Shown: positions 1 to 11,181 of the stretch, one piece after another
Layout of the letters: every line of letters starts with the position of its first letter
Numbering within the stretch: the first letter of the stretch is position 1
UHGV virus genome: UHGV-0130923
Source: a virus
DNA: 11,181 nt
Direction: 5' to 3' (one strand)
The notes under the pieces: generated by a model
The model's input: the letters and a program-made list of their open reading frames with translations, nothing else
Database searches by the model: none
What the model was told of the DNA's origin: nothing
Translations under genes and position numbers: made by a program

Positions 1-1
1 G

Positions 2-124
2 CTGTACGTTTCGCCGATTGTTTCCGGTGAGGTTATCCGTTCCCGTGGCGGCTCCACCTCTGAATTTACGCCGGGATATGTCAAACCCAAGCACTTAGCA
101 TGGCTTTCTGAGGCTTTCGTGTAG
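2..124 (+). CDS. E: Lambda E-like major capsid protein, N-terminal-side fragment of the helper prophage gene (runs off the window start, interrupted by the island)
   Basis: Frame starting at nt 2 reads LYVSPIVSGEVIRSRGGSTSEFTPGYVKPKH, then nine unrelated residues (LAWLSEAFV) and a TAG at 122-124. The conserved part matches lambda gpE residues ~52-82 as I recall them. The reading frame changes character exactly at the direct repeat. Confidence 0.8.
   Translation: MYVSPIVSGEVIRSRGGSTSEFTPGYVKPKHLAWLSEAFV
84..93. other. attL core: left copy of the 10-bp direct repeat AACCCAAGCA
   Basis: Identical 10-mer at 84-93 and 10843-10852, each sitting on the K-P-K-H codons of the split capsid gene. An integrase gene begins ~160 bp inside the left copy. 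Confidence 0.75.
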
Positions 125-1821: not shown

Positions 1822-2328
1822 TCATATACCGGGGTGCATTGCATCCCACTGAATATGCTGATGTTTTTTTTCTGTTTCTATCCTTTTTTCAATAAGTTGT
1901 TGTATATTTTTACAGTACAATTTGTGTGTGATGTTATTATCGTAAGCCTGATATAGCAACGTCAATGTTGATGCTATGAAACATGCAGAAAGAAAATGAA
2001 CTAGTACATGTGAGCGTTTTTTGGTTGTCCATGATGCATTCGCTTGTGAAATATAAATCATTCTGAGAATGATAATGATGATAGACAGTAACAGACCACT
2101 CAATAAAATAAGTATTGGGTTTGCGTATTTAATTAATGGTTGAGAGCAAAAAACTATTATAGCTCCTGTGACTGCGTATGAGAAAAAGGAGTAATTAAAC
2201 TTCTTACTCCTTCTCTCAAGTATTTTAATTTCATCTTGTGTGGGGGTTTTAGATGCCTCTAATATAAGTTTATTAAATGTTTCTGTTATCTTGTTTTTTG
2301 TGTTTGTGGCTATTTTTTTTAGATTCAT
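1822..2328 (-). CDS. Hypothetical membrane protein, about three predicted transmembrane helices (AT-rich accessory cargo)
   Basis: 168-aa ORF with a AAGGGAG ribosome-binding site upstream of the ATG. Hydrophobic stretches FFSYAVTGAIIVFCSQPL, ILILLSGLLLSIIIIIL and VLVHFLSACFIASTLTLL. The gene and its flanks (about 1722-2640) are visibly more AT-rich than the rest of the island. Confidence 0.55.
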   Translation of the reverse strand: MNLKKIATNTKNKITETFNKLILEASKTPTQDEIKILERRSKKFNYSFFSYAVTGAIIVFCSQPLIKYANPILILLSGLLLSIIIIILRMIYISQANASWTTKKRSHVLVHFLSACFIASTLTLLYQAYDNNITHKLYCKNIQQLIEKRIETEKKHQHIQWDAMHPGI

Positions 2329-2678
2329 AGCATTCTAACTCCCTTAACTTATTTATTACTTTCTCTTTATGATAAGAGAGGGGAATGACTTGGTAAAGTG
2401 ATTTGTCATTAATAATGATAATCCTTGCGATAAATATTTCTGCAAGTTATTTACCTGTTTGTTGCTATCTTGTTAAGCGTTGGGTGTGGTTTATGTTTGG
2501 AGCGACTTTATTTAATCGTGATTTTATGGATTTATATTTATATCCTGTAAGATAAGCGCATGTTAGTTCAGGAGTAGTGTCAGATAAAATTATTCGGAGT
2601 AGAACTACCTTTTCTGTTTATTGCCAGTATTTACATAGCAATGCGCCGTAGTTACTCACATCACGGCGCTGATACTAA

Positions 2679-2981
2679 TTATTCAGATTCTTTGGCTTTA
2701 CGCCGCTGGAGTTCTTCACGAGCGACGGCTACGAGTTGCCCGATTTCCTCCGCTGCCTTGATGCCGATTTGTTCGACCTTAGCTAAGGCATCCAGTGAAG
2801 ACACGAGGGGATTTTCTCCGCTTCCTTCTGCCTGGCGGCGGGCGATCTCACCGCGCATGGCGGTTACTATGAATCCGGCGTTGCTTTCGCCGTCCAGTTT
2901 TACGGATTCCATGCCCTCCATAACATCGTGGGGAACCCTGATCGTTGTCATTTGCGATTTTGCATTTTTGTATACAGACAT
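2679..2981 (-). CDS. YlcI/YnfO-family (DUF3950-like) small protein, candidate island regulator
   Basis: 100-aa ORF. The segment TTIRVPHDVMEGMESVKLDGESNAGFIVTAMRGEIARR parallels the pattern of E. coli prophage YlcI (IRFPNQMIEQINIALDQKGSGNFSAWVIEACRRR) as recalled from memory. It is transcribed divergently from the plus-strand operon. Confidence 0.55.
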   Translation of the reverse strand: MSVYKNAKSQMTTIRVPHDVMEGMESVKLDGESNAGFIVTAMRGEIARRQAEGSGENPLVSSLDALAKVEQIGIKAAEEIGQLVAVAREELQRRKAKESE

Positions 2982-3001
2982 AGTTAATCACCAATTTGTT
3001 A

Positions 3002-3104
3002 TGTGTATATCACTATACACAAAAGTGAGATATAAAAACACTTGCAATGTATATCACCACAATATAATGTATATCTCACATTATGGTCGCTATGTATCTC
3101 ACAA
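3002..3104. promoter_or_regulatory. Divergent promoter/operator region with repeated TGTATATC(A/T)CAC-like sites
   Basis: Inverted repeat TGTGTATA-TCAC-TATACACA at 3002-3021, with related copies at 3026-3035 (inverted), 3048-3059, 3068-3081 and 3092-3104, in the AT-rich gap between the two divergent genes. Confidence 0.5.
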
Positions 3105-3189
3105 TGATCGATTCATAAAAACGACGAAACCCGGCAGTGCGCGAACACTAACCGGGCTTCTAACCAAACCGTTAAACGAGGTAACGATT

Positions 3190-3555
3190 ATGGCTGGAAC
3201 ACAGCATACCCAAACTCACCCTAAATTTATATACACCTTTGTGGCACTACACCACGACCGCATGGCAGATGGAGCAACTACGGTACATGTTGCCGCTGAC
3301 ACGCTGGTTGATGCCCGCAAGATGGTTAAGGAGATGGGCTATACTGCGGCTTTCTGGAAAGGGCGTGAAGAAAACACGCTGTTTATTCAGAAATGCGAAA
3401 ACAATTTCATCTGGCGTTTTATCGCCCTGAGCACCGCACAACCACGCGTAATACACATCGTGGCCACCAGCGAACAGGAAGCCCGCCAGCAATCCCCGGC
3501 TGGTTGCGTGATGGTATTCGCCGCCCGTATTCGTCAGGAGGTATGCCGTGCTTAA
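3190..3555 (+). CDS. Hypothetical protein, first gene of the plus-strand early operon
   Basis: ATG at 3190 preceded by GAGGT at 3179-3183. This is the in-frame internal start of track ORF 2641..3555, whose upstream part overlaps the opposite-strand gene and the operator region. Confidence 0.5.
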   Translation: MAGTQHTQTHPKFIYTFVALHHDRMADGATTVHVAADTLVDARKMVKEMGYTAAFWKGREENTLFIQKCENNFIWRFIALSTAQPRVIHIVATSEQEARQQSPAGCVMVFAARIRQEVCRA

Positions 3556-4358: not shown

Positions 4359-6110
4359 ATGAAGAGCGCACCGAACCTAAAAAAACAGCCGCGCGACAAG
4401 ATGACAGAAGTTATTATTTTTGCGGGTAGTGATGCGTGGAGCCATGCGAAAGAGTGGCAGGAATGGGCGGGTAAACATATTGCCGCCGACGATGTGCCGC
4501 CTGTCGTGCTGGCTGATGAGCAACTGAAAAATATCACCGATTACCGGATCATTGATGAAGATCGTCAGTGTGTGCGTGTTTACCGCGCAGGACATATCAC
4601 AGAGCACAGCATGACGCAGATTGTTACGTTACTGGCTGTGGCTGGAGTGAAGACCGTACACGAATACGCGGGGATTACTGACACCAGCCCCGTGGATTTA
4701 TCCGACCAGTTGCCGCGACTCAAAGAGGAATGCGAGCGTGGGGAAAGTCTGGTGCTTAATCTTCCGACGAAGCAAAAGGCGCAACTTTCACAGATGGCAG
4801 ACAGTGAACGTGCACAACTACTTGCCGATCGCTTTGATGGTGTGTGTGTTCATGCAGAAAGTGAAATCGTCCACGTATGGCGCGGCGGGGTATGGTGTCC
4901 GGTCAGCACAATGGAGCTGAGCCGCGAAATGGTGGCGATCTATTCAGAGCACAGGGCCACATTCAGCAAGCGTGCAATTAATAACGCCGTGGAGGCGTTA
5001 AAAGTTATTGCCGACCCCATGGGGGAGCCGTCCGGTGATTTGCTACCGTTCGCCAATGGTGTGCTTGACCTGAAAACGGGGGAATTTTCCCCGCACTCGC
5101 CGGAGAACTGGATCACCACGCACAACGGCATTGAGTACACGCCACCAGCACCAGGGGAGAACATCCGCGACAACGCGCCAAACTTTCATAAATGGCTTGA
5201 TCACGCAGCCGGAAAAGACCCACGCAAGATGATGCGTATATGTGCCGCGCTGTACATGATTATGGCGAACCGGTACGACTGGCAGATGTTTATTGAGGCC
5301 ACCGGAGACGGCGGGAGCGGAAAGAGTACATTCACGCACATAGCCAGCCTTCTGGCAGGGAAACAGAACACGGTAAGCGCTGAAATGACTTCGCTTGATG
5401 ATGCTGGTGGGCGTGCTCAGGTTGTCGGGAGTCGTCTTATCGTCCTGGCTGACCAGCCGAAATATACAGGCGAAGGCACGGGCATCAAGAAAATCACGGG
5501 CGGCGACCCCGTGGAAATAAACCCGAAATATGAAAAGCGTTTTACGGCGGTAATCAGGGCGGTGGTGCTGGCTACCAACAATAACCCGATGATATTCACC
5601 GAACGGGCCGGAGGTGTGTCACGTCGTCGCGTAATTTTCCGCTTCGACAATATCGTTAGCGAGGCAGAAAAGGACAAGGATTTACCGGAGAAGGTCGCGG
5701 CTGAAATCCCCGTGATTATCCGCAGATTGCTGGCAAACTTTGCTGATCCAGAAAAGGCGCGACATTTGTTGATTGAACAGCGCGACGGTGAAGAAGCACT
5801 GGCGATAAAGCAACAGACGGATCCGGTTATTGAGTTTTGCCAGTTTCTGAATTTTCTGGAGGAAGCGCGCGGCCTGATGATGGGTGGCGGTGGCGATTCC
5901 GTGAAGTACACGACCAGAAACAGCCTTTACCGCGTCTATCTGGCGTTTATGGCATACGCAGGCAGAAGCAAGCCGCTAAACGTGGCTGATTTCAGCAAGG
6001 CCATGAAGCCAGCGGCGAAAGTTTACGGATGTGAATATATAACGCGCAGGGTTAAAGGACTTACGCAAACCAATGTGACAACAACAGAGGATTGCGACGC
6101 GTTTTTATAA
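4359..6110 (+). CDS. Primase-helicase family replication protein (P4 alpha C-terminal / D5-like NTPase)
   Basis: 583 aa with a Walker A P-loop GDGGSGKST and a downstream hydrophobic strand ending in acidic residues (RLIVLADQP), Walker B-like. AGGGGG ribosome-binding site before the ATG at 4359. An iteron array lies immediately downstream. Confidence 0.75.
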   Translation: MKSAPNLKKQPRDKMTEVIIFAGSDAWSHAKEWQEWAGKHIAADDVPPVVLADEQLKNITDYRIIDEDRQCVRVYRAGHITEHSMTQIVTLLAVAGVKTVHEYAGITDTSPVDLSDQLPRLKEECERGESLVLNLPTKQKAQLSQMADSERAQLLADRFDGVCVHAESEIVHVWRGGVWCPVSTMELSREMVAIYSEHRATFSKRAINNAVEALKVIADPMGEPSGDLLPFANGVLDLKTGEFSPHSPENWITTHNGIEYTPPAPGENIRDNAPNFHKWLDHAAGKDPRKMMRICAALYMIMANRYDWQMFIEATGDGGSGKSTFTHIASLLAGKQNTVSAEMTSLDDAGGRAQVVGSRLIVLADQPKYTGEGTGIKKITGGDPVEINPKYEKRFTAVIRAVVLATNNNPMIFTERAGGVSRRRVIFRFDNIVSEAEKDKDLPEKVAAEIPVIIRRLLANFADPEKARHLLIEQRDGEEALAIKQQTDPVIEFCQFLNFLEEARGLMMGGGGDSVKYTTRNSLYRVYLAFMAYAGRSKPLNVADFSKAMKPAAKVYGCEYITRRVKGLTQTNVTTTEDCDAFL

Positions 6111-6120
6111 TTTTAGACAA

Positions 6121-6353
6121 AAGCCCTCTACCTCCTCTACCTAAAGAAAATAAATATATATTATTCAATATGATAAGCAGGTAGAGGGCTAGGTAGAAGG
6201 CAAATAAAAGCCCTCTACCTCCTCCACCATGATTAAGGTCATTTGTGAGGGGCGGGTAGAGGATGGGTAGAGGGCCCCGAAAGCCCTCTACCCATCTGAA
6301 AGCCGCGCCATTACTGACCTGAAAGATGATTAGGTAGAGAGGTAGAGGAGGTG
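6121..6353. repeat. Iteron array, putative island origin of replication
   Basis: About 11 copies of CCTCTACC / GGTAGAGG in alternating orientation (for example 6124-6141, 6180-6200, 6210-6227, 6254-6274, 6284-6293, 6333-6351), with an AT-rich stretch at 6142-6180, directly after the primase-helicase gene. Confidence 0.65.
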
Positions 6354-7119: not shown

Positions 7120-7290
7120 GCTACATAAATCCCGACCAAAGGAAGTAAATACATTAACACGAATTATCAGCACTGAAGTTGTCACGGCAGATTTTATACA
7201 ACATTGCACTTGGTTGCATGTATTCGCATAGCAAATATCGGTGATAGCATATATCCACAATCATTTTTAATGAATGCAAAGAGGATGCGT

Positions 7291-8331
7291 ATGGTTGATT
7301 TATATTCGCCTGCCCAGCTTGTGCAGGTGGCTAATGCTGAAGATGTGCAAAAAAAATTAAATGCGTTGTTTACCAGTTTGTTTTTCACTCGCTCGGTAAT
7401 GTTTGAATCGAGAGACATTATTCTTGATACGATCGACGATCCAAATATCCCGATCGCGGCGTTTTGCTCTCCTATGGTGGGCAGTAAGGTTTCACGAGAT
7501 GAGGGATACGAATCAAAGACAATTCGTCCAGGCTATATGAAGCCGAAAAGCAGCATTGATCCAAATAAGTTAGCTGTGCGCCCTGCGGGTGTATCACCTG
7601 AGCAATACAATGCTTTTGGAGCGCGTAATATTAAAGTTAAACAGGCGATTGTAAATCAGGCTAAAGCTATTCGTGCACGTATTGAATGGCTTGCCGTTCA
7701 GGCAATCACAACGGGGAAAAATATCATTGAGGGCGATGGTATTGAACGTTATGAGCTGGACTGGAATATTAAACCACAAAATATCATCACTCAGTCTGGC
7801 GGTGCTGAGTGGTCAGGTAAGGATAAAGAAACTTTTGATCCAAATGATGATATTGAGAGCTACGCAGAATTTAGTGAGGGCGTCACTAATATCATCATTA
7901 TGGGCGGTAATGTATGGAAGAAATACCGTTCATTCAGAGCGATAAAAGAGGCTCTGGATACCCGTCGTGGTTCTAATGCCGAACTGGAAACGGCCCTTAA
8001 AGACCTTGGTGATTCGGTGAGTTTTAAAGGGTATATGGGCGATGTTGCGATTGTTGTATACAGCGGGCGTTATACCGACGAGGACGGAACTGAAAAACAT
8101 TTCCTTGATCCTGATTTGATGGTGCTTGGCAATACGGCTCTTCAGGGGATTGTCGCCTATGGCGGTATTCAGGATCCGGAGCTAATCCGAATGGGGCTGA
8201 CTAAAGCCGAACTTGCACCGAAAAACTATATTGTGCCTGGTGATCCGGCTATTGAATATGTGCAGACACATTCAGCACCACAGCCAATACCGGCCCGCAT
8301 CAATCGTTTTGTTACCGTTCGCATTGGCTAA
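7291..8331 (+). CDS. Island-encoded divergent homolog of the lambda major capsid protein gpE
   Basis: ATG at 7291 with AAAGAGGA upstream. The product aligns with lambda gpE along its length: ITQSGGAEWSGKDKETFDPNDDIESYA vs ITQSGGTEWSKRDKSTYDPTDDIEAYA, TRRGSNAELETALKDLG vs TRRGSNSELETAVKDLG, GDVAIVVYSG and MVLGNT shared. It is far more divergent than the flanking helper fragments. Confidence 0.85.
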   Translation: MVDLYSPAQLVQVANAEDVQKKLNALFTSLFFTRSVMFESRDIILDTIDDPNIPIAAFCSPMVGSKVSRDEGYESKTIRPGYMKPKSSIDPNKLAVRPAGVSPEQYNAFGARNIKVKQAIVNQAKAIRARIEWLAVQAITTGKNIIEGDGIERYELDWNIKPQNIITQSGGAEWSGKDKETFDPNDDIESYAEFSEGVTNIIIMGGNVWKKYRSFRAIKEALDTRRGSNAELETALKDLGDSVSFKGYMGDVAIVVYSGRYTDEDGTEKHFLDPDLMVLGNTALQGIVAYGGIQDPELIRMGLTKAELAPKNYIVPGDPAIEYVQTHSAPQPIPARINRFVTVRIG

Positions 8332-8340
8332 GGGGGAGCA

Positions 8341-8682
8341 ATGGCTACTCATTACACTGAACTCATGGCTGGCACTGAAGCACTGGTGACTACGCTGGGG
8401 ATATTTTCAGCTAATAAAGGGGTAATTCCTGCATTTACGCCACTGATGCAGGAAGATGCAACAGGTGCACTGGTGGTATGGGATGGTTCGAGCGTAGGTA
8501 AAGCGGTTTATGTTTCCGCTGTACAAATCGACACCGCGAAAAAAACACAGGCTCAGGTCTATAAGACAGGTGTCTTAAATGTTGATGCTCTGAACTGGCC
8601 TGAGTCTGTAAAAGAACTGTCAGTAAAGATTGCAGCGTTTGTTGGCTCAGGTATTTCTGTTCAGCCGCTGGCTCGTGTGTAA
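8341..8682 (+). CDS. Island-encoded homolog of the lambda head decoration protein gpD
   Basis: 113 aa with an AAGGGGGAG ribosome-binding site. TPLMQEDATGALVVWDGSS...YKTGVLNVDALNWPE...AAFVGSGISV parallels lambda gpD TPLMLDTSSRKLVAWDGTT...YKSGTFRYEDVLWPE...TAFAGTAISIV. Confidence 0.8.
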   Translation: MATHYTELMAGTEALVTTLGIFSANKGVIPAFTPLMQEDATGALVVWDGSSVGKAVYVSAVQIDTAKKTQAQVYKTGVLNVDALNWPESVKELSVKIAAFVGSGISVQPLARV

Positions 8683-8693
8683 AGGGGGATACA

Positions 8694-9077
8694 ATGCAGA
8701 ATCTTTACAATGACCTTAAGCCAATTGCCGAAATGATGTATCCGGATCCAGCAGTAGAGGAATTAAAGGCTATTGCTGACAAAATGCGTTTAAGCGAGCG
8801 TCTTGTTGATATGAATCAGGTGATGGAACTTACAACCCTGAGTCGTCGTACACTGCTAAACCTTGAAGCACGTGGAGAGTTCCCCGAACGCGTGCAGGTT
8901 ACGGAAGGGCGTAAGGCCTGGTATTTAAGCGAAGTGATCGACTGGATAAACAATATTCCGCGCGCTTCTGAATATTGCCGCGTACCTGTCCCAAAAAAGC
9001 CAGATGCGGCGCTATGCCTCAAGATTGAGCGTGTACGCCGCAATGCGCGGGATGGTCGCTATAAGCTGATTGGTTGA
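8694..9077 (+). CDS. Second AlpA-family HTH protein, directly upstream of cos
   Basis: 127 aa with an AAAGGGGGA ribosome-binding site. Contains MELTTLSRRTLLNLEARGEFPERVQVTEGRKAWYLSEVIDWIN, an AlpA-like motif. Co-oriented and tightly spaced with the E and D homologs. Confidence 0.6.
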   Translation: MQNLYNDLKPIAEMMYPDPAVEELKAIADKMRLSERLVDMNQVMELTTLSRRTLLNLEARGEFPERVQVTEGRKAWYLSEVIDWINNIPRASEYCRVPVPKKPDAALCLKIERVRRNARDGRYKLIG

Positions 9078-10842: not shown

Positions 10843-10852
10843 AACCCAAGCA
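10843..10852. other. attR core: right copy of the 10-bp direct repeat AACCCAAGCA
   Basis: Identical to 84-93; the capsid reading frame resumes immediately (P-K-H-E-V-N-P-Q). Confidence 0.75.
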
Positions 10853-11181
10853 TGAGGTGAATCCGCAGATGACCCTGCGTCGCCTGCCGGATGAAGATCC
10901 GCAGAATCTGGCGGACCCGGCTTACCGCCGCCGTCGCATCATCATGCAGAACATGCGTGACGAAGAGCTGGCCATTGCTCAGGTCGAAGAGATGCAGGCA
11001 GTTTCTGCCGTGCTTAAGGGCAAATACACCATGACCGGTGAAGCCTTTGATCCGGTTGAGGTGGATATGGGGCGCAGTGCGGCGAACAACATCACACAGT
11101 CCGGTGGCACGGAGTGGAGCAAGCGCGACAAGTCCACGTATGACCCGACCGACGATATCGAAGCCTACGCGCTGAACGCCA
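10845..11181 (+). CDS. E: Lambda E-like major capsid protein, distal fragment of the helper prophage gene (runs off the window end)
   Basis: Frame from 10845 reads PKHEVNPQMTLRRLPDEDPQNLADPAYRRRRIIMQNMRDEELAIAQVEEMQAVSAVLKGKYTMTGEAFDPVEVDMGRSAANNITQSGGTEWSKRDKSTYDPTDDIEAYALNA, which continues lambda gpE from residue ~80 as I recall it. An in-frame TAA at 10842-10844 immediately precedes it. Confidence 0.8.

Follow-up and report, generated by a model that had tools for sequence, protein, structure and literature searches.

We analysed the intergenic interval 2982-3189 of UHGV virus genome UHGV-0130923, in which a cluster of short repeats lies between a minus-strand gene of the YlcI/YnfO family and a plus-strand early operon that starts with an Icd-like gene and ends with a primase-helicase. 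All coordinates refer to the window, that is the whole 11,181-nt stretch of DNA that was analysed; plus and minus denote its strands, and L-numbers denote relative loci that we fetched. The initial annotation had counted at least five repeat copies between these divergent genes and had proposed a repressor-controlled induction switch. The copy number and the flanking genes are as it described them, and the region contains the following features:

2679-2981, minus strand: YlcI/YnfO-family gene, encoding the YlcI-like protein of 100 aa
3004-3013, plus strand: site O1, TGTATATCAC, over the predicted transcript start of the YlcI-like gene and abutting its -10; left part of a palindrome
3012-3017, minus strand: predicted -10 of the YlcI-gene promoter, TATAGT, with TTGTG before it and no convincing -35
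3025-3034, minus strand: site O2, TATATCTCAC, within the spacer of the YlcI-gene promoter
3042-3047, plus strand: predicted -35 of the early promoter, TTGCAA
3048-3057, plus strand: site O3, TGTATATCAC, in the early-promoter spacer, directly after the -35
3063-3070, plus strand: predicted -10 region of the early promoter, with TAATGT at 3065-3070 and a 17-nt spacer
3070-3079, plus strand: site O4, TATATCTCAC, across the predicted early transcript start and the last part of the -10
3093-3102, plus strand: site O5, TGTATCTCAC, some 16-26 nt past the early start site
3113-3198, minus strand: putative structured, SymR-like cis-antisense RNA gene, about 83 nt
3190-3555, plus strand: Icd-like gene, first of the early operon (NCBIfam NF033153, 76 bits)
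between the Icd-like gene and the primase-helicase, plus strand: small open reading frames (ORFs) and DUF4222
4359-6110, plus strand: D5_N/DUF5906 primase-helicase, closing the early operon that starts at 3190

The pattern used in the initial annotation, TGTATATCWCAC, gives seven overlapping matches in 3002-3104 and one elsewhere when up to two mismatches are allowed; the expectation for the whole window is 1.5, and eight matches were reached in none of 200 shuffles. Re-alignment of the copies on their CAC end yielded a sharper 10-mer, TRTATMTCAC, with exactly five perfect matches, all in 3004-3102 and none elsewhere in the 11,181 bp. The degeneracy of this pattern predicts about 8e-4 to 1e-3 perfect matches by chance per 100 bp of both strands. 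The region is AT-rich, as a chance clustering of AT-rich words would require, but five perfect 10-mers against an expectation of ~1e-3, the 0/200 shuffles and the occupation of five positions in 81 relatives (see below) leave this explanation with practically no probability, and the repeat counts rule it out.

Measured at their CAC ends (3013, 3057, 3079 and 3102), the four co-oriented sites are 44, 22 and 23 bp apart, and the inverted O2 occupies the array position between O1 and O3. Successive positions are thus about two helical turns apart, which places the sites on one face of the helix. O4 lies within the 12-mer TGTATATCTCAC at 3068-3079. The 8-4-8 palindrome reported earlier is present (TGTGTATA-TCAC-TATACACA, 3002-3021), but we do not retain it as a single symmetric operator: in the relatives its right arm, TATACACA, corresponds to a conserved TGTGTATAnT segment, the -10 region of the YlcI promoter, and the spacing of the arms varies (18 vs 20 bp). 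The description of 2982-3189 as an operator cluster holds for 3002-3102 only, and the remainder of the interval is the putative antisense RNA gene, which the initial annotation overlooked.

Two partial operator words lie outside the array, each with at least two mismatches to the 10-mer: TGTATACA at 2969-2976, in codons 2-5 of the YlcI-like gene, and GTGTATATAAAT at 3225-3236 on the minus strand, near the -35 position of the putative antisense promoter. They have no counterpart in the sequences of the relatives, as judged by eye; we leave them unassigned, and they are possibly coincidental.

The conservation of this arrangement was assessed in relatives of the YlcI-like protein, which form 249 database clusters (alignment A1). 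Loci taken from genomes, encoding contigs, metagenomes and IMG/VR gave 164 usable cases, corresponding to 81 distinct intergenic regions of Enterobacterales satellites; 22 loci were read by eye and the 81 distinct regions were analysed computationally. The layout is common to 81/81 regions, including that of the model island EcCICFT073. Starting from the YlcI start, the conserved order is a site, TATAnT on the minus strand, an inverted site, TTGACx, a 17-nt spacer that starts with a site, a TAnnnT -10, a site over the start point, a fifth site, two hairpins, a Shine-Dalgarno sequence and the Icd-like ATG.

This conservation underlies our promoter assignments. A generic sigma-70 promoter and terminator scan of 2600-3400, which needs at least 4/6 matches per hexamer and a 16-18-nt spacer, returned zero promoters and zero relevant terminators. 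The early promoter was missed because TAATGT has 3/6 matches and the overlapping TATAAT (3063-3068) would give a 15-nt spacer. Our promoter calls are therefore predictions from positional conservation. At the position homologous to the early -35, 58/81 relatives have TTGAC[AGTC], the spacer is 17 nt in 70/81, and the early -10 was placed by comparison with TAACAT, TAAAGT and TAATGT at the homologous position of relatives. TATAnT is the commonest form at the YlcI -10 position across the 81 regions (TATACT 24, TATATT 16, TATAGT 15, TATAAT 6), usually with TTGTG ahead of it.

To search without bias for the sites in each relative, we took the most repeated 8-mer per locus. The results show a clade-specific 8-mer that recurs in the same set of five positions, lying roughly 22, 45, 67, 90 and 112 nt away from the YlcI start. 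Each clade has its own motif, but within one locus all sites change in concert. Linkage alone is insufficient for all five sites to change together, so a common, island-specific reader is needed. Comparison across loci further shows that the motif word tracks residues 11-17 of the YlcI-like protein, as follows:

MTTIRVP (the class of the window; MTTIR): TGTATATC, TATATCAC
LTTVRVP and LFTVRVP: TGTGTTTC, alike in E. coli, Xenorhabdus and Photorhabdus
SLTARIP (SLTAR): TGTAAGAC, TGTAAG(A/C)C
ALAARVP (ALAAR): GTGTTTAC
xKNxR: GTGTGTAT or TGTGCATT
QxNAR: GGTATTCA or GGGATTCA
ALKARVP (EcCICFT073): GTGGGCCAC

The table of motifs against strand classes is largely diagonal: the cognate 8-mer has 3-5 matches per locus, most non-cognate 8-mers have 0-1, and shuffles have 0.1-0.2. 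Off-diagonal values of up to about 4 occur only between related 8-mers, for example GTGTGTAT with 4.1 in the LTTVRVP class. The MTTIR class consists of 15 near-identical sequences that differ mainly at 3081-3090, which is too little variation to footprint.

Phased short repeats close to a replication operon could also be replication iterons, that is, part of an origin. Those at 3004-3102 lie on promoter elements, though, and covary with the YlcI N-terminus rather than with the replication protein; the same layout occurs among the relatives with three replication proteins (D5_N, DUF927 and AAA_25). A much denser iteron field is located at 6120-6350, directly downstream of the primase-helicase, the usual place of a PICI (phage-inducible chromosomal island) origin; it has at least ten copies, of either orientation, of GGTAGAGGGC / GCCCTCTACC. 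This field is probably the replication origin of the island, and it accounts for spurious matches to microRNA families in Rfam at 6121-6203. Since a separate iteron field exists and the layout is kept with three replication proteins, we conclude that the repeats at 3004-3102 are not an origin, an explanation that we consider extremely improbable.

The YlcI-like protein itself is a mosaic. Its N-terminal 34 residues show 35-47% identity, as opposed to 87-96% for the C-terminus: protein P0080 shares 47% identity with the window protein over residues 1-34 and 96% over residues 55-100, and the corresponding values for P0098 are 35% and 87%. The repeats could also be read by AlpA, the activator of island genes in EcCICFT073, or by the Icd-like protein, whose family PHROGs 1743 and 6196 call a transcriptional repressor, but both proteins are reshuffled relative to the motif and were rejected as binders. 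CFT073 and L024 have unrelated motifs (GTGGGCCAC vs TGTGTTTC) although their AlpA proteins share 93.5% identity; the LTTVR class is found with at least four AlpA types, and one AlpA type occurs with three motif classes. Likewise, an identical 65-aa Icd-like protein is found with two motif classes, and leader and Icd types are reshuffled against operator classes. We thus regard AlpA or Icd-like sites as very unlikely. The mosaic structure of the YlcI-like protein, together with the uncoupling of AlpA and the Icd-like protein from the motif, points to the YlcI N-terminus as the source of motif specificity.

The YlcI-like protein matches the NCBIfam model YlcI_YnfO_N (NF041551; 70.5 bits, E 8.5e-20, residues 8-49, cutoff 30), and the RefSeq name for the identical locus is 'YlcI/YnfO family protein'. 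As already stated in the initial annotation, the family lacks an established function: PHROGs 6522 and 949 are labelled 'unknown function', and the searched literature gives no description of a regulator. The AlphaFold2 (AF2) model has an extended N-terminus, helices at 18-27 and 34-54, and a long helix at 58-99. The RxPH(D/E)V junction falls in register with RWPREV of Arc (hhalign, E 0.011, probability 4%), and some sources label homologues 'Arc-like DNA binding domain'. PSK_trans_fac, a family of the ribbon-helix-helix (RHH) clan, is weakly matched by 17/25 homologues, below its cutoff, and by the YlcI-like protein at 16.3 bits against a cutoff of 28.3. A Pfam search at default thresholds gave no match, a PDB profile search returned no RHH structure, and the hhalign comparison with Mnt was insignificant (E 0.14).

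Based on the model and these matches, the fold of approximately residues 8-54 is probably ribbon-helix-helix, below every curated threshold, and the long C-terminal helix 58-99 probably serves oligomerisation. If the protein resembles Arc, its DNA-facing residues would be 11, 13 and 15; in alignment A1 residue 15 is an invariant Arg, and residues 11 and 13 vary between classes. In RHH proteins the N-terminal strand sets DNA specificity, and across the loci the adjacent motif indeed changes with segment 11-14. Residues 45-86 (2724-2849, minus strand) have a weak match (E 0.011) to the helix-hairpin-helix of Hef nuclease ('veeiGvkaaeei'); AF2 models them as one long helix, so that they may form either an oligomerisation helix or a second DNA-contacting motif. 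EcCICFT073 (positions 10474-10855 of L187, from NC_004431.1) carries the same module with GTGGGCCACACC as its sites, a YlcI-like protein of 59 aa without the C-terminal helix, and the antisense RNA (70 bits with our RNA model R1). The position homologous to the RNA is 1380768-1380854 of NC_004431.1, minus strand.

The right half of the interval is occupied by the putative RNA gene, with the following predicted elements on the minus strand:

3203-3208, minus strand: predicted -10 of the antisense RNA promoter, TATGCT, inside Icd-like codons 5-7
3195-3162, minus strand: hairpin SL1, with the loop CCUCGUU (3181-3175) as anti-Shine-Dalgarno and the anti-start codon in its 5' arm
3160-3126, minus strand: GC-rich hairpin SL2, with the terminator-like tail GUCGUUUUUAU after it

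The RNA is complementary to the Icd-like leader, its ribosome-binding site (RBS; GAGG 3178-3181) and its start codon (3190). The minus strand of 3198-3112 folds with a minimum free energy of -34.7 kcal/mol (z -4.86, 0/200 shuffles). Each of 54 distinct relatives has the more stable fold on the minus strand (mean -34.7 vs -23.8), and under dinucleotide shuffling the mean z is -5.1 for the minus strand and -2.2 for the plus strand. RNAalifold on a 30-sequence alignment (A2) returned 20 pairs, 12 of them with compensatory changes; 95.5% of the cells are paired, none of 500 shuffles reaches any of five measures, and slid controls give about 40%.

Mirror-image hairpins arise in any cis-antisense pair, and the hairpins could therefore act in the plus-strand mRNA leader instead, as a sequestered RBS, an attenuator or a processing site, with no separate RNA. 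The Shine-Dalgarno sequence does lie within a plus-strand CGTTA...TAACG hairpin, and the second hairpin of the L024 type has U.G pairs that favour the plus strand (by eye). On the other hand, the plus strand of the same segment (-19.8 kcal/mol, z -1.03) is no better than its shuffles, 28/200 of which reach it, and the minus strand has the lower z in 53/54 relatives. In A2, 90 of the paired minus-strand cells are G.U; their plus-strand counterparts are A.C, and pairing there drops to 81%. A -10-like hexamer at a fixed minus-strand distance and a reciprocal resemblance to SymR on the minus strand, both described below, also speak against a leader structure acting by itself, which we consider improbable.

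In 50/50 distinct relatives, about half of which have a TGn extension, the hexamer TAnnnT has a fixed distance to the anti-start codon, either 10 or 4 nt, and it is kept despite differing encoded residues (QHT, KST, NSN, NHT, NRT and HRN). Its position in the window predicts an RNA start at about 3195, some 6 nt inside the Icd-like gene. R1, a covariance model built from the island RNAs, gives one strong match (57-89 bits), always on the YlcI strand, in 23/26 sources, including loci outside the training set; the match is weak in L102 (18 bits), and there is none in L186, an adjacent lambda-like prophage, or in L013, which holds a YlcI remnant.

An Rfam scan by E-value gave one non-trivial match, to SymR (RF01809), at 3195-3123 on the minus strand (35.3 bits, E 0.0011), which is below the gathering score of 61. 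RF01809 also matches L002, L005 and L012 (38.7, 32.0 and 29.9 bits). In the opposite direction, the best match of R1 in 14 kb of K-12 (positions 7833-7922 of L188, from NC_000913.3) is the annotated symR, at 20.2 bits and E 0.004. The resemblance is thus reciprocal, but sub-threshold. The geometry is also of the SymR type, cis-antisense to a ribosome-binding site and start codon with two hairpins, the second terminator-like, and homology between the RNA and SymR is possible. SymR may itself be a domesticated relative of a satellite RNA family.

The scan returned no match in the window to the C4/P4-CI immunity RNAs (RF01695, RF01394; E up to 1) or to isrK. Two relative loci, L023 (1874-2078) and L096 (42-246), carry a genuine C4 RNA on the early-operon strand (73 and 69 bits; gathering score 45), with an a1b1 target and isrK-like matches inside the second early gene, besides the SymR-like RNA. 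Related islands therefore appear to stack different RNA controls.

Taken together, the interval would exert two-level control of the early (replication) operon, through operators for the YlcI-like protein and through the antisense RNA, and we give this reading a probability of about 0.65. From sequence we infer the binding by the YlcI-like protein, repression rather than activation, the promoter, ends and effect of the RNA, and the flipping of the switch. The earlier proposal of a repressor-controlled divergent switch agrees with all computational tests made: the positions of the sites on the promoters, the conservation in 81 regions, a motif that tracks the N-terminus, and the RHH-like topology of the protein. 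The layout is the one seen for maintenance repressors of the CI, Stl and Mnt type: the gene diverges from the replication operon, and sites lie over both promoters.

At the first level, a tetramer-forming YlcI-like RHH protein would bind the five phased 10-bp sites. Occupancy would shut the rightward early promoter, and with it expression of the Icd-like gene, the small ORFs, DUF4222 and the primase-helicase, and would autoregulate the leftward promoter of the YlcI-like gene. At the second level, a constitutive minus-strand RNA of about 83 nt, running from inside the Icd-like gene to the edge of the operator array, would pair with the early mRNA leader, its Shine-Dalgarno sequence and start codon, and thereby block Icd-like translation on transcripts that escape repression. 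The Icd-like first gene is probably toxic. The early genes overlap or abut (3548/3555, 3733) and the leader is C-rich and G-poor (by eye), so a loss of translation is expected to be polar on the primase gene; by analogy with c4-icd-ant of P1, polarity on the downstream genes is probable.

For an embedded island such as this one, the most economical way to flip the switch would be helper late read-through entering from the left, co-oriented with int, alpA and the early operon (PMC10111431). Such read-through would bypass the repressed promoter and, running antisense to the YlcI-like gene, would oppose repressor synthesis. A helper-encoded anti-repressor would be an alternative. Islands at chromosomal sites such as EcCICFT073, where AlpA is the published activator and its expression is triggered by the helper phage (PMC6092414), would need AlpA-driven read-through or a helper anti-repressor.

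The role of AlpA in EcCICFT073 also bears on whether the YlcI-like protein is a maintenance repressor. It might bind the repeats and act as a Cro- or Arc-like early modulator or as an activator, with quiescence kept by lack of AlpA, by the antisense RNA or by H-NS. Such a role would fit with AlpA as the demonstrated helper-triggered activator (PMC6092414), with a YlcI promoter that has no -35 and might need activation, and with the 59-aa short form of the protein in EcCICFT073. Sites nevertheless lie across the -10 and start region of either promoter, a repression-type geometry, and the YlcI-like gene points away from the lytic-type operon like the genes of maintenance repressors; we therefore judge a modulator role unlikely.

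Several observations weigh against two-level control by a YlcI repressor and an antisense RNA. The orientation of the sites varies from class to class: O4 and O5 form direct repeats in the window and inverted ones in the LTTVR class, and such variation is unusual for a symmetric dimer. The generic sigma-70 scan called no promoter in 2600-3400, the early -10 TAATGT has only 3/6 matches, and the YlcI promoter is without a recognisable -35. For the RNA, the putative terminator U-tract lies 4 nt from the stem and was missed by the terminator scan, while the -10-like hexamer of its promoter lies in coding sequence, where protein constraint is possible. The searched literature holds no experimental data on binding, promoter activity or RNA, and AlpA being the activator of EcCICFT073, induction has so far been explained without a repressor (PMC6092414).

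Beyond the switch, the gene content of the window indicates an E. coli phage satellite, a Gram-negative PICI of the helper-embedded subtype and cap_E type. Its other annotated features are:

206-1492: integrase
1485-1721: AlpA
1822-2328, minus strand: membrane-protein ORF
downstream of the primase-helicase: SSB
7204-8331: the island's own capsid gene, lambda-E-like
8341-8682: decoration gene
8694-9077: second AlpA-like gene (PHROG 2790, 'excisionase and transcriptional regulator')
just downstream of the second AlpA-like gene: small terminase gene

This order comprises int and alpA, a variable zone, a replication zone with a primase and a late zone, as described for helper-embedded Gram-negative PICIs (Tommasini et al. 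2023). The late or packaging module may have a regulator of its own in the second AlpA-like gene. At 121 aa, the Icd-like ORF is a tandem duplication of an Icd-like unit of about 60 aa, the relatives encoding 65-68 aa. RefSeq labels the first early gene 'host cell division inhibitor Icd-like', and the labels of the family conflict, with PHROGs 1743 and 6196 giving 'transcriptional repressor' and NCBIfam a host cell division inhibitor.

The embedding is seen at both ends of the window. NZ_CP070066 holds a 99% identical copy of the island directly after a truncated prophage major-capsid gene, upstream of int, and the left end of the window (1-95) corresponds to the truncated 5' part of the same capsid gene in that copy. 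The right end (10850-11181) translates to a lambda gpE-like major capsid protein (KPKHEVNPQMTLRRLPDEDPQNLADPAYRRRRIIMQNMRDEE...), resuming at about 10850 with 'KPKHEVNPQM', which we take to be residue ~80 of gpE. With the truncated gene on the left and the gpE-like 3' part on the right, the island is embedded in the capsid gene of a helper prophage, co-oriented with this gene and the helper late operon. The site resembles E:Phage_cap_E_80 of Tommasini, Mageeney and Williams (2023), who described helper-embedded PICIs of the cap_E type (PMC10111431). In the NZ_CP070066 copy (L001, 11901-14489) an IS66 element interrupts the primase-helicase gene, and this copy is probably replication-defective.

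We found no description of YlcI/YnfO proteins as regulators, of these operators or of this RNA in the searched literature. The founding paper on Gram-negative PICIs left the global repressor unidentified or unclear and described induction via the activator AlpA (PMC6092414); Tommasini et al. mention neither YlcI nor operators nor this antisense RNA (PMC10111431), and later papers in the search list YlcI/YnfO only as 'prophage-associated protein'. Both kinds of part are classical, namely operators for an RHH repressor and a ribosome-binding site covered by a cis-antisense RNA; in the searched literature, their combination as a probable switch of early genes is not yet described for Gram-negative PICIs.

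As a tentative and still rather doubtful extension, YlcI/YnfO proteins could be the missing master repressors of many Gram-negative PICIs, EcCICFT073 included. The N-terminal strand and the five operators would form interchangeable immunity cassettes, combined with a SymR-related RNA lock that in embedded islands would be opened in cis by helper late transcription. If true, this would give a function to the uncharacterised YlcI/YnfO family and provide a testable model of satellite silence, in which differing specificity cassettes keep the islands from cross-regulating one another. It would also add a new cis-antisense RNA family, maybe SymR-related, and supply defined promoters, operators and an RNA for delivery and diagnostic tools based on EcCICFT073. 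Part of the ~1-kb region around the switch has matches in 1145/5426 complete E. coli genomes, and its interest stems from this prevalence and from its presence in the model PICI EcCICFT073.

Finally, we compared the system with known switches. The immI region of phage P22 encodes the RHH repressors Mnt and Arc, the divergent promoters Pmnt and Pant, and the antisense RNA sar. In both systems, on our reading of the window, a small RHH-type repressor gene diverges from a lytic-type operon, operators lie over back-to-back promoters, and a short cis-antisense RNA arises inside the operon and covers a ribosome-binding site; like Mnt, the YlcI-like protein would join an RHH domain to a C-terminal helical oligomerisation domain. 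The two differ in that no homology is detectable beyond the RxPxEV signature, in being carried by a satellite here and a phage there, in having five phased sites here as opposed to one operator per repressor, and in the target of the RNA, which is the first gene (Icd-like) here and the antirepressor in P22.

SymE/SymR of E. coli K-12 (Kawano, Aravind and Storz 2007, PMC1891008; Rfam RF01809) provides a close parallel for the RNA. Both systems have a cis RNA of about 77-83 nt with two hairpins, encoded across from the 5' end of a gene that may be toxic and that is also under a protein repressor (LexA there, the proposed island-encoded one here). The target here is Icd-like, in contrast to the AbrB-fold SymE. 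In immI of P1/P7 (c4, icd, ant), considered together with the CI/seqA immunity RNA of P4, an Icd-family first gene is likewise gated at the RNA level (P1/P7). The C4 RNA, however, acts in trans and is processed from the same transcript, whereas the RNA proposed here would be cis-antisense on the opposite strand.

Among satellites, the Stl/Rpr master repressor system of Gram-positive PICIs (SaPIs) shares a regulator that diverges from an excision and replication operon, with int on its side, and an allele-specific module. Stl proteins are larger helix-turn-helix proteins inactivated by helper proteins, unlike the 100-aa RHH-type protein with its second, RNA layer; no anti-repressor is known for the YlcI-like protein. 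Multi-site RHH binding of the TraM type, with cooperative dimers on several short sites of variable orientation and an RHH domain joined to a C-terminal helical tetramerisation domain, offers a further likeness. The 10-bp sites about 22 bp apart differ from the contiguous heptads of multi-site RHH systems, and no sequence relationship is shown. By these analogies, the system of the window resembles P22 immI and SymE in its logic, and we assign it to neither.

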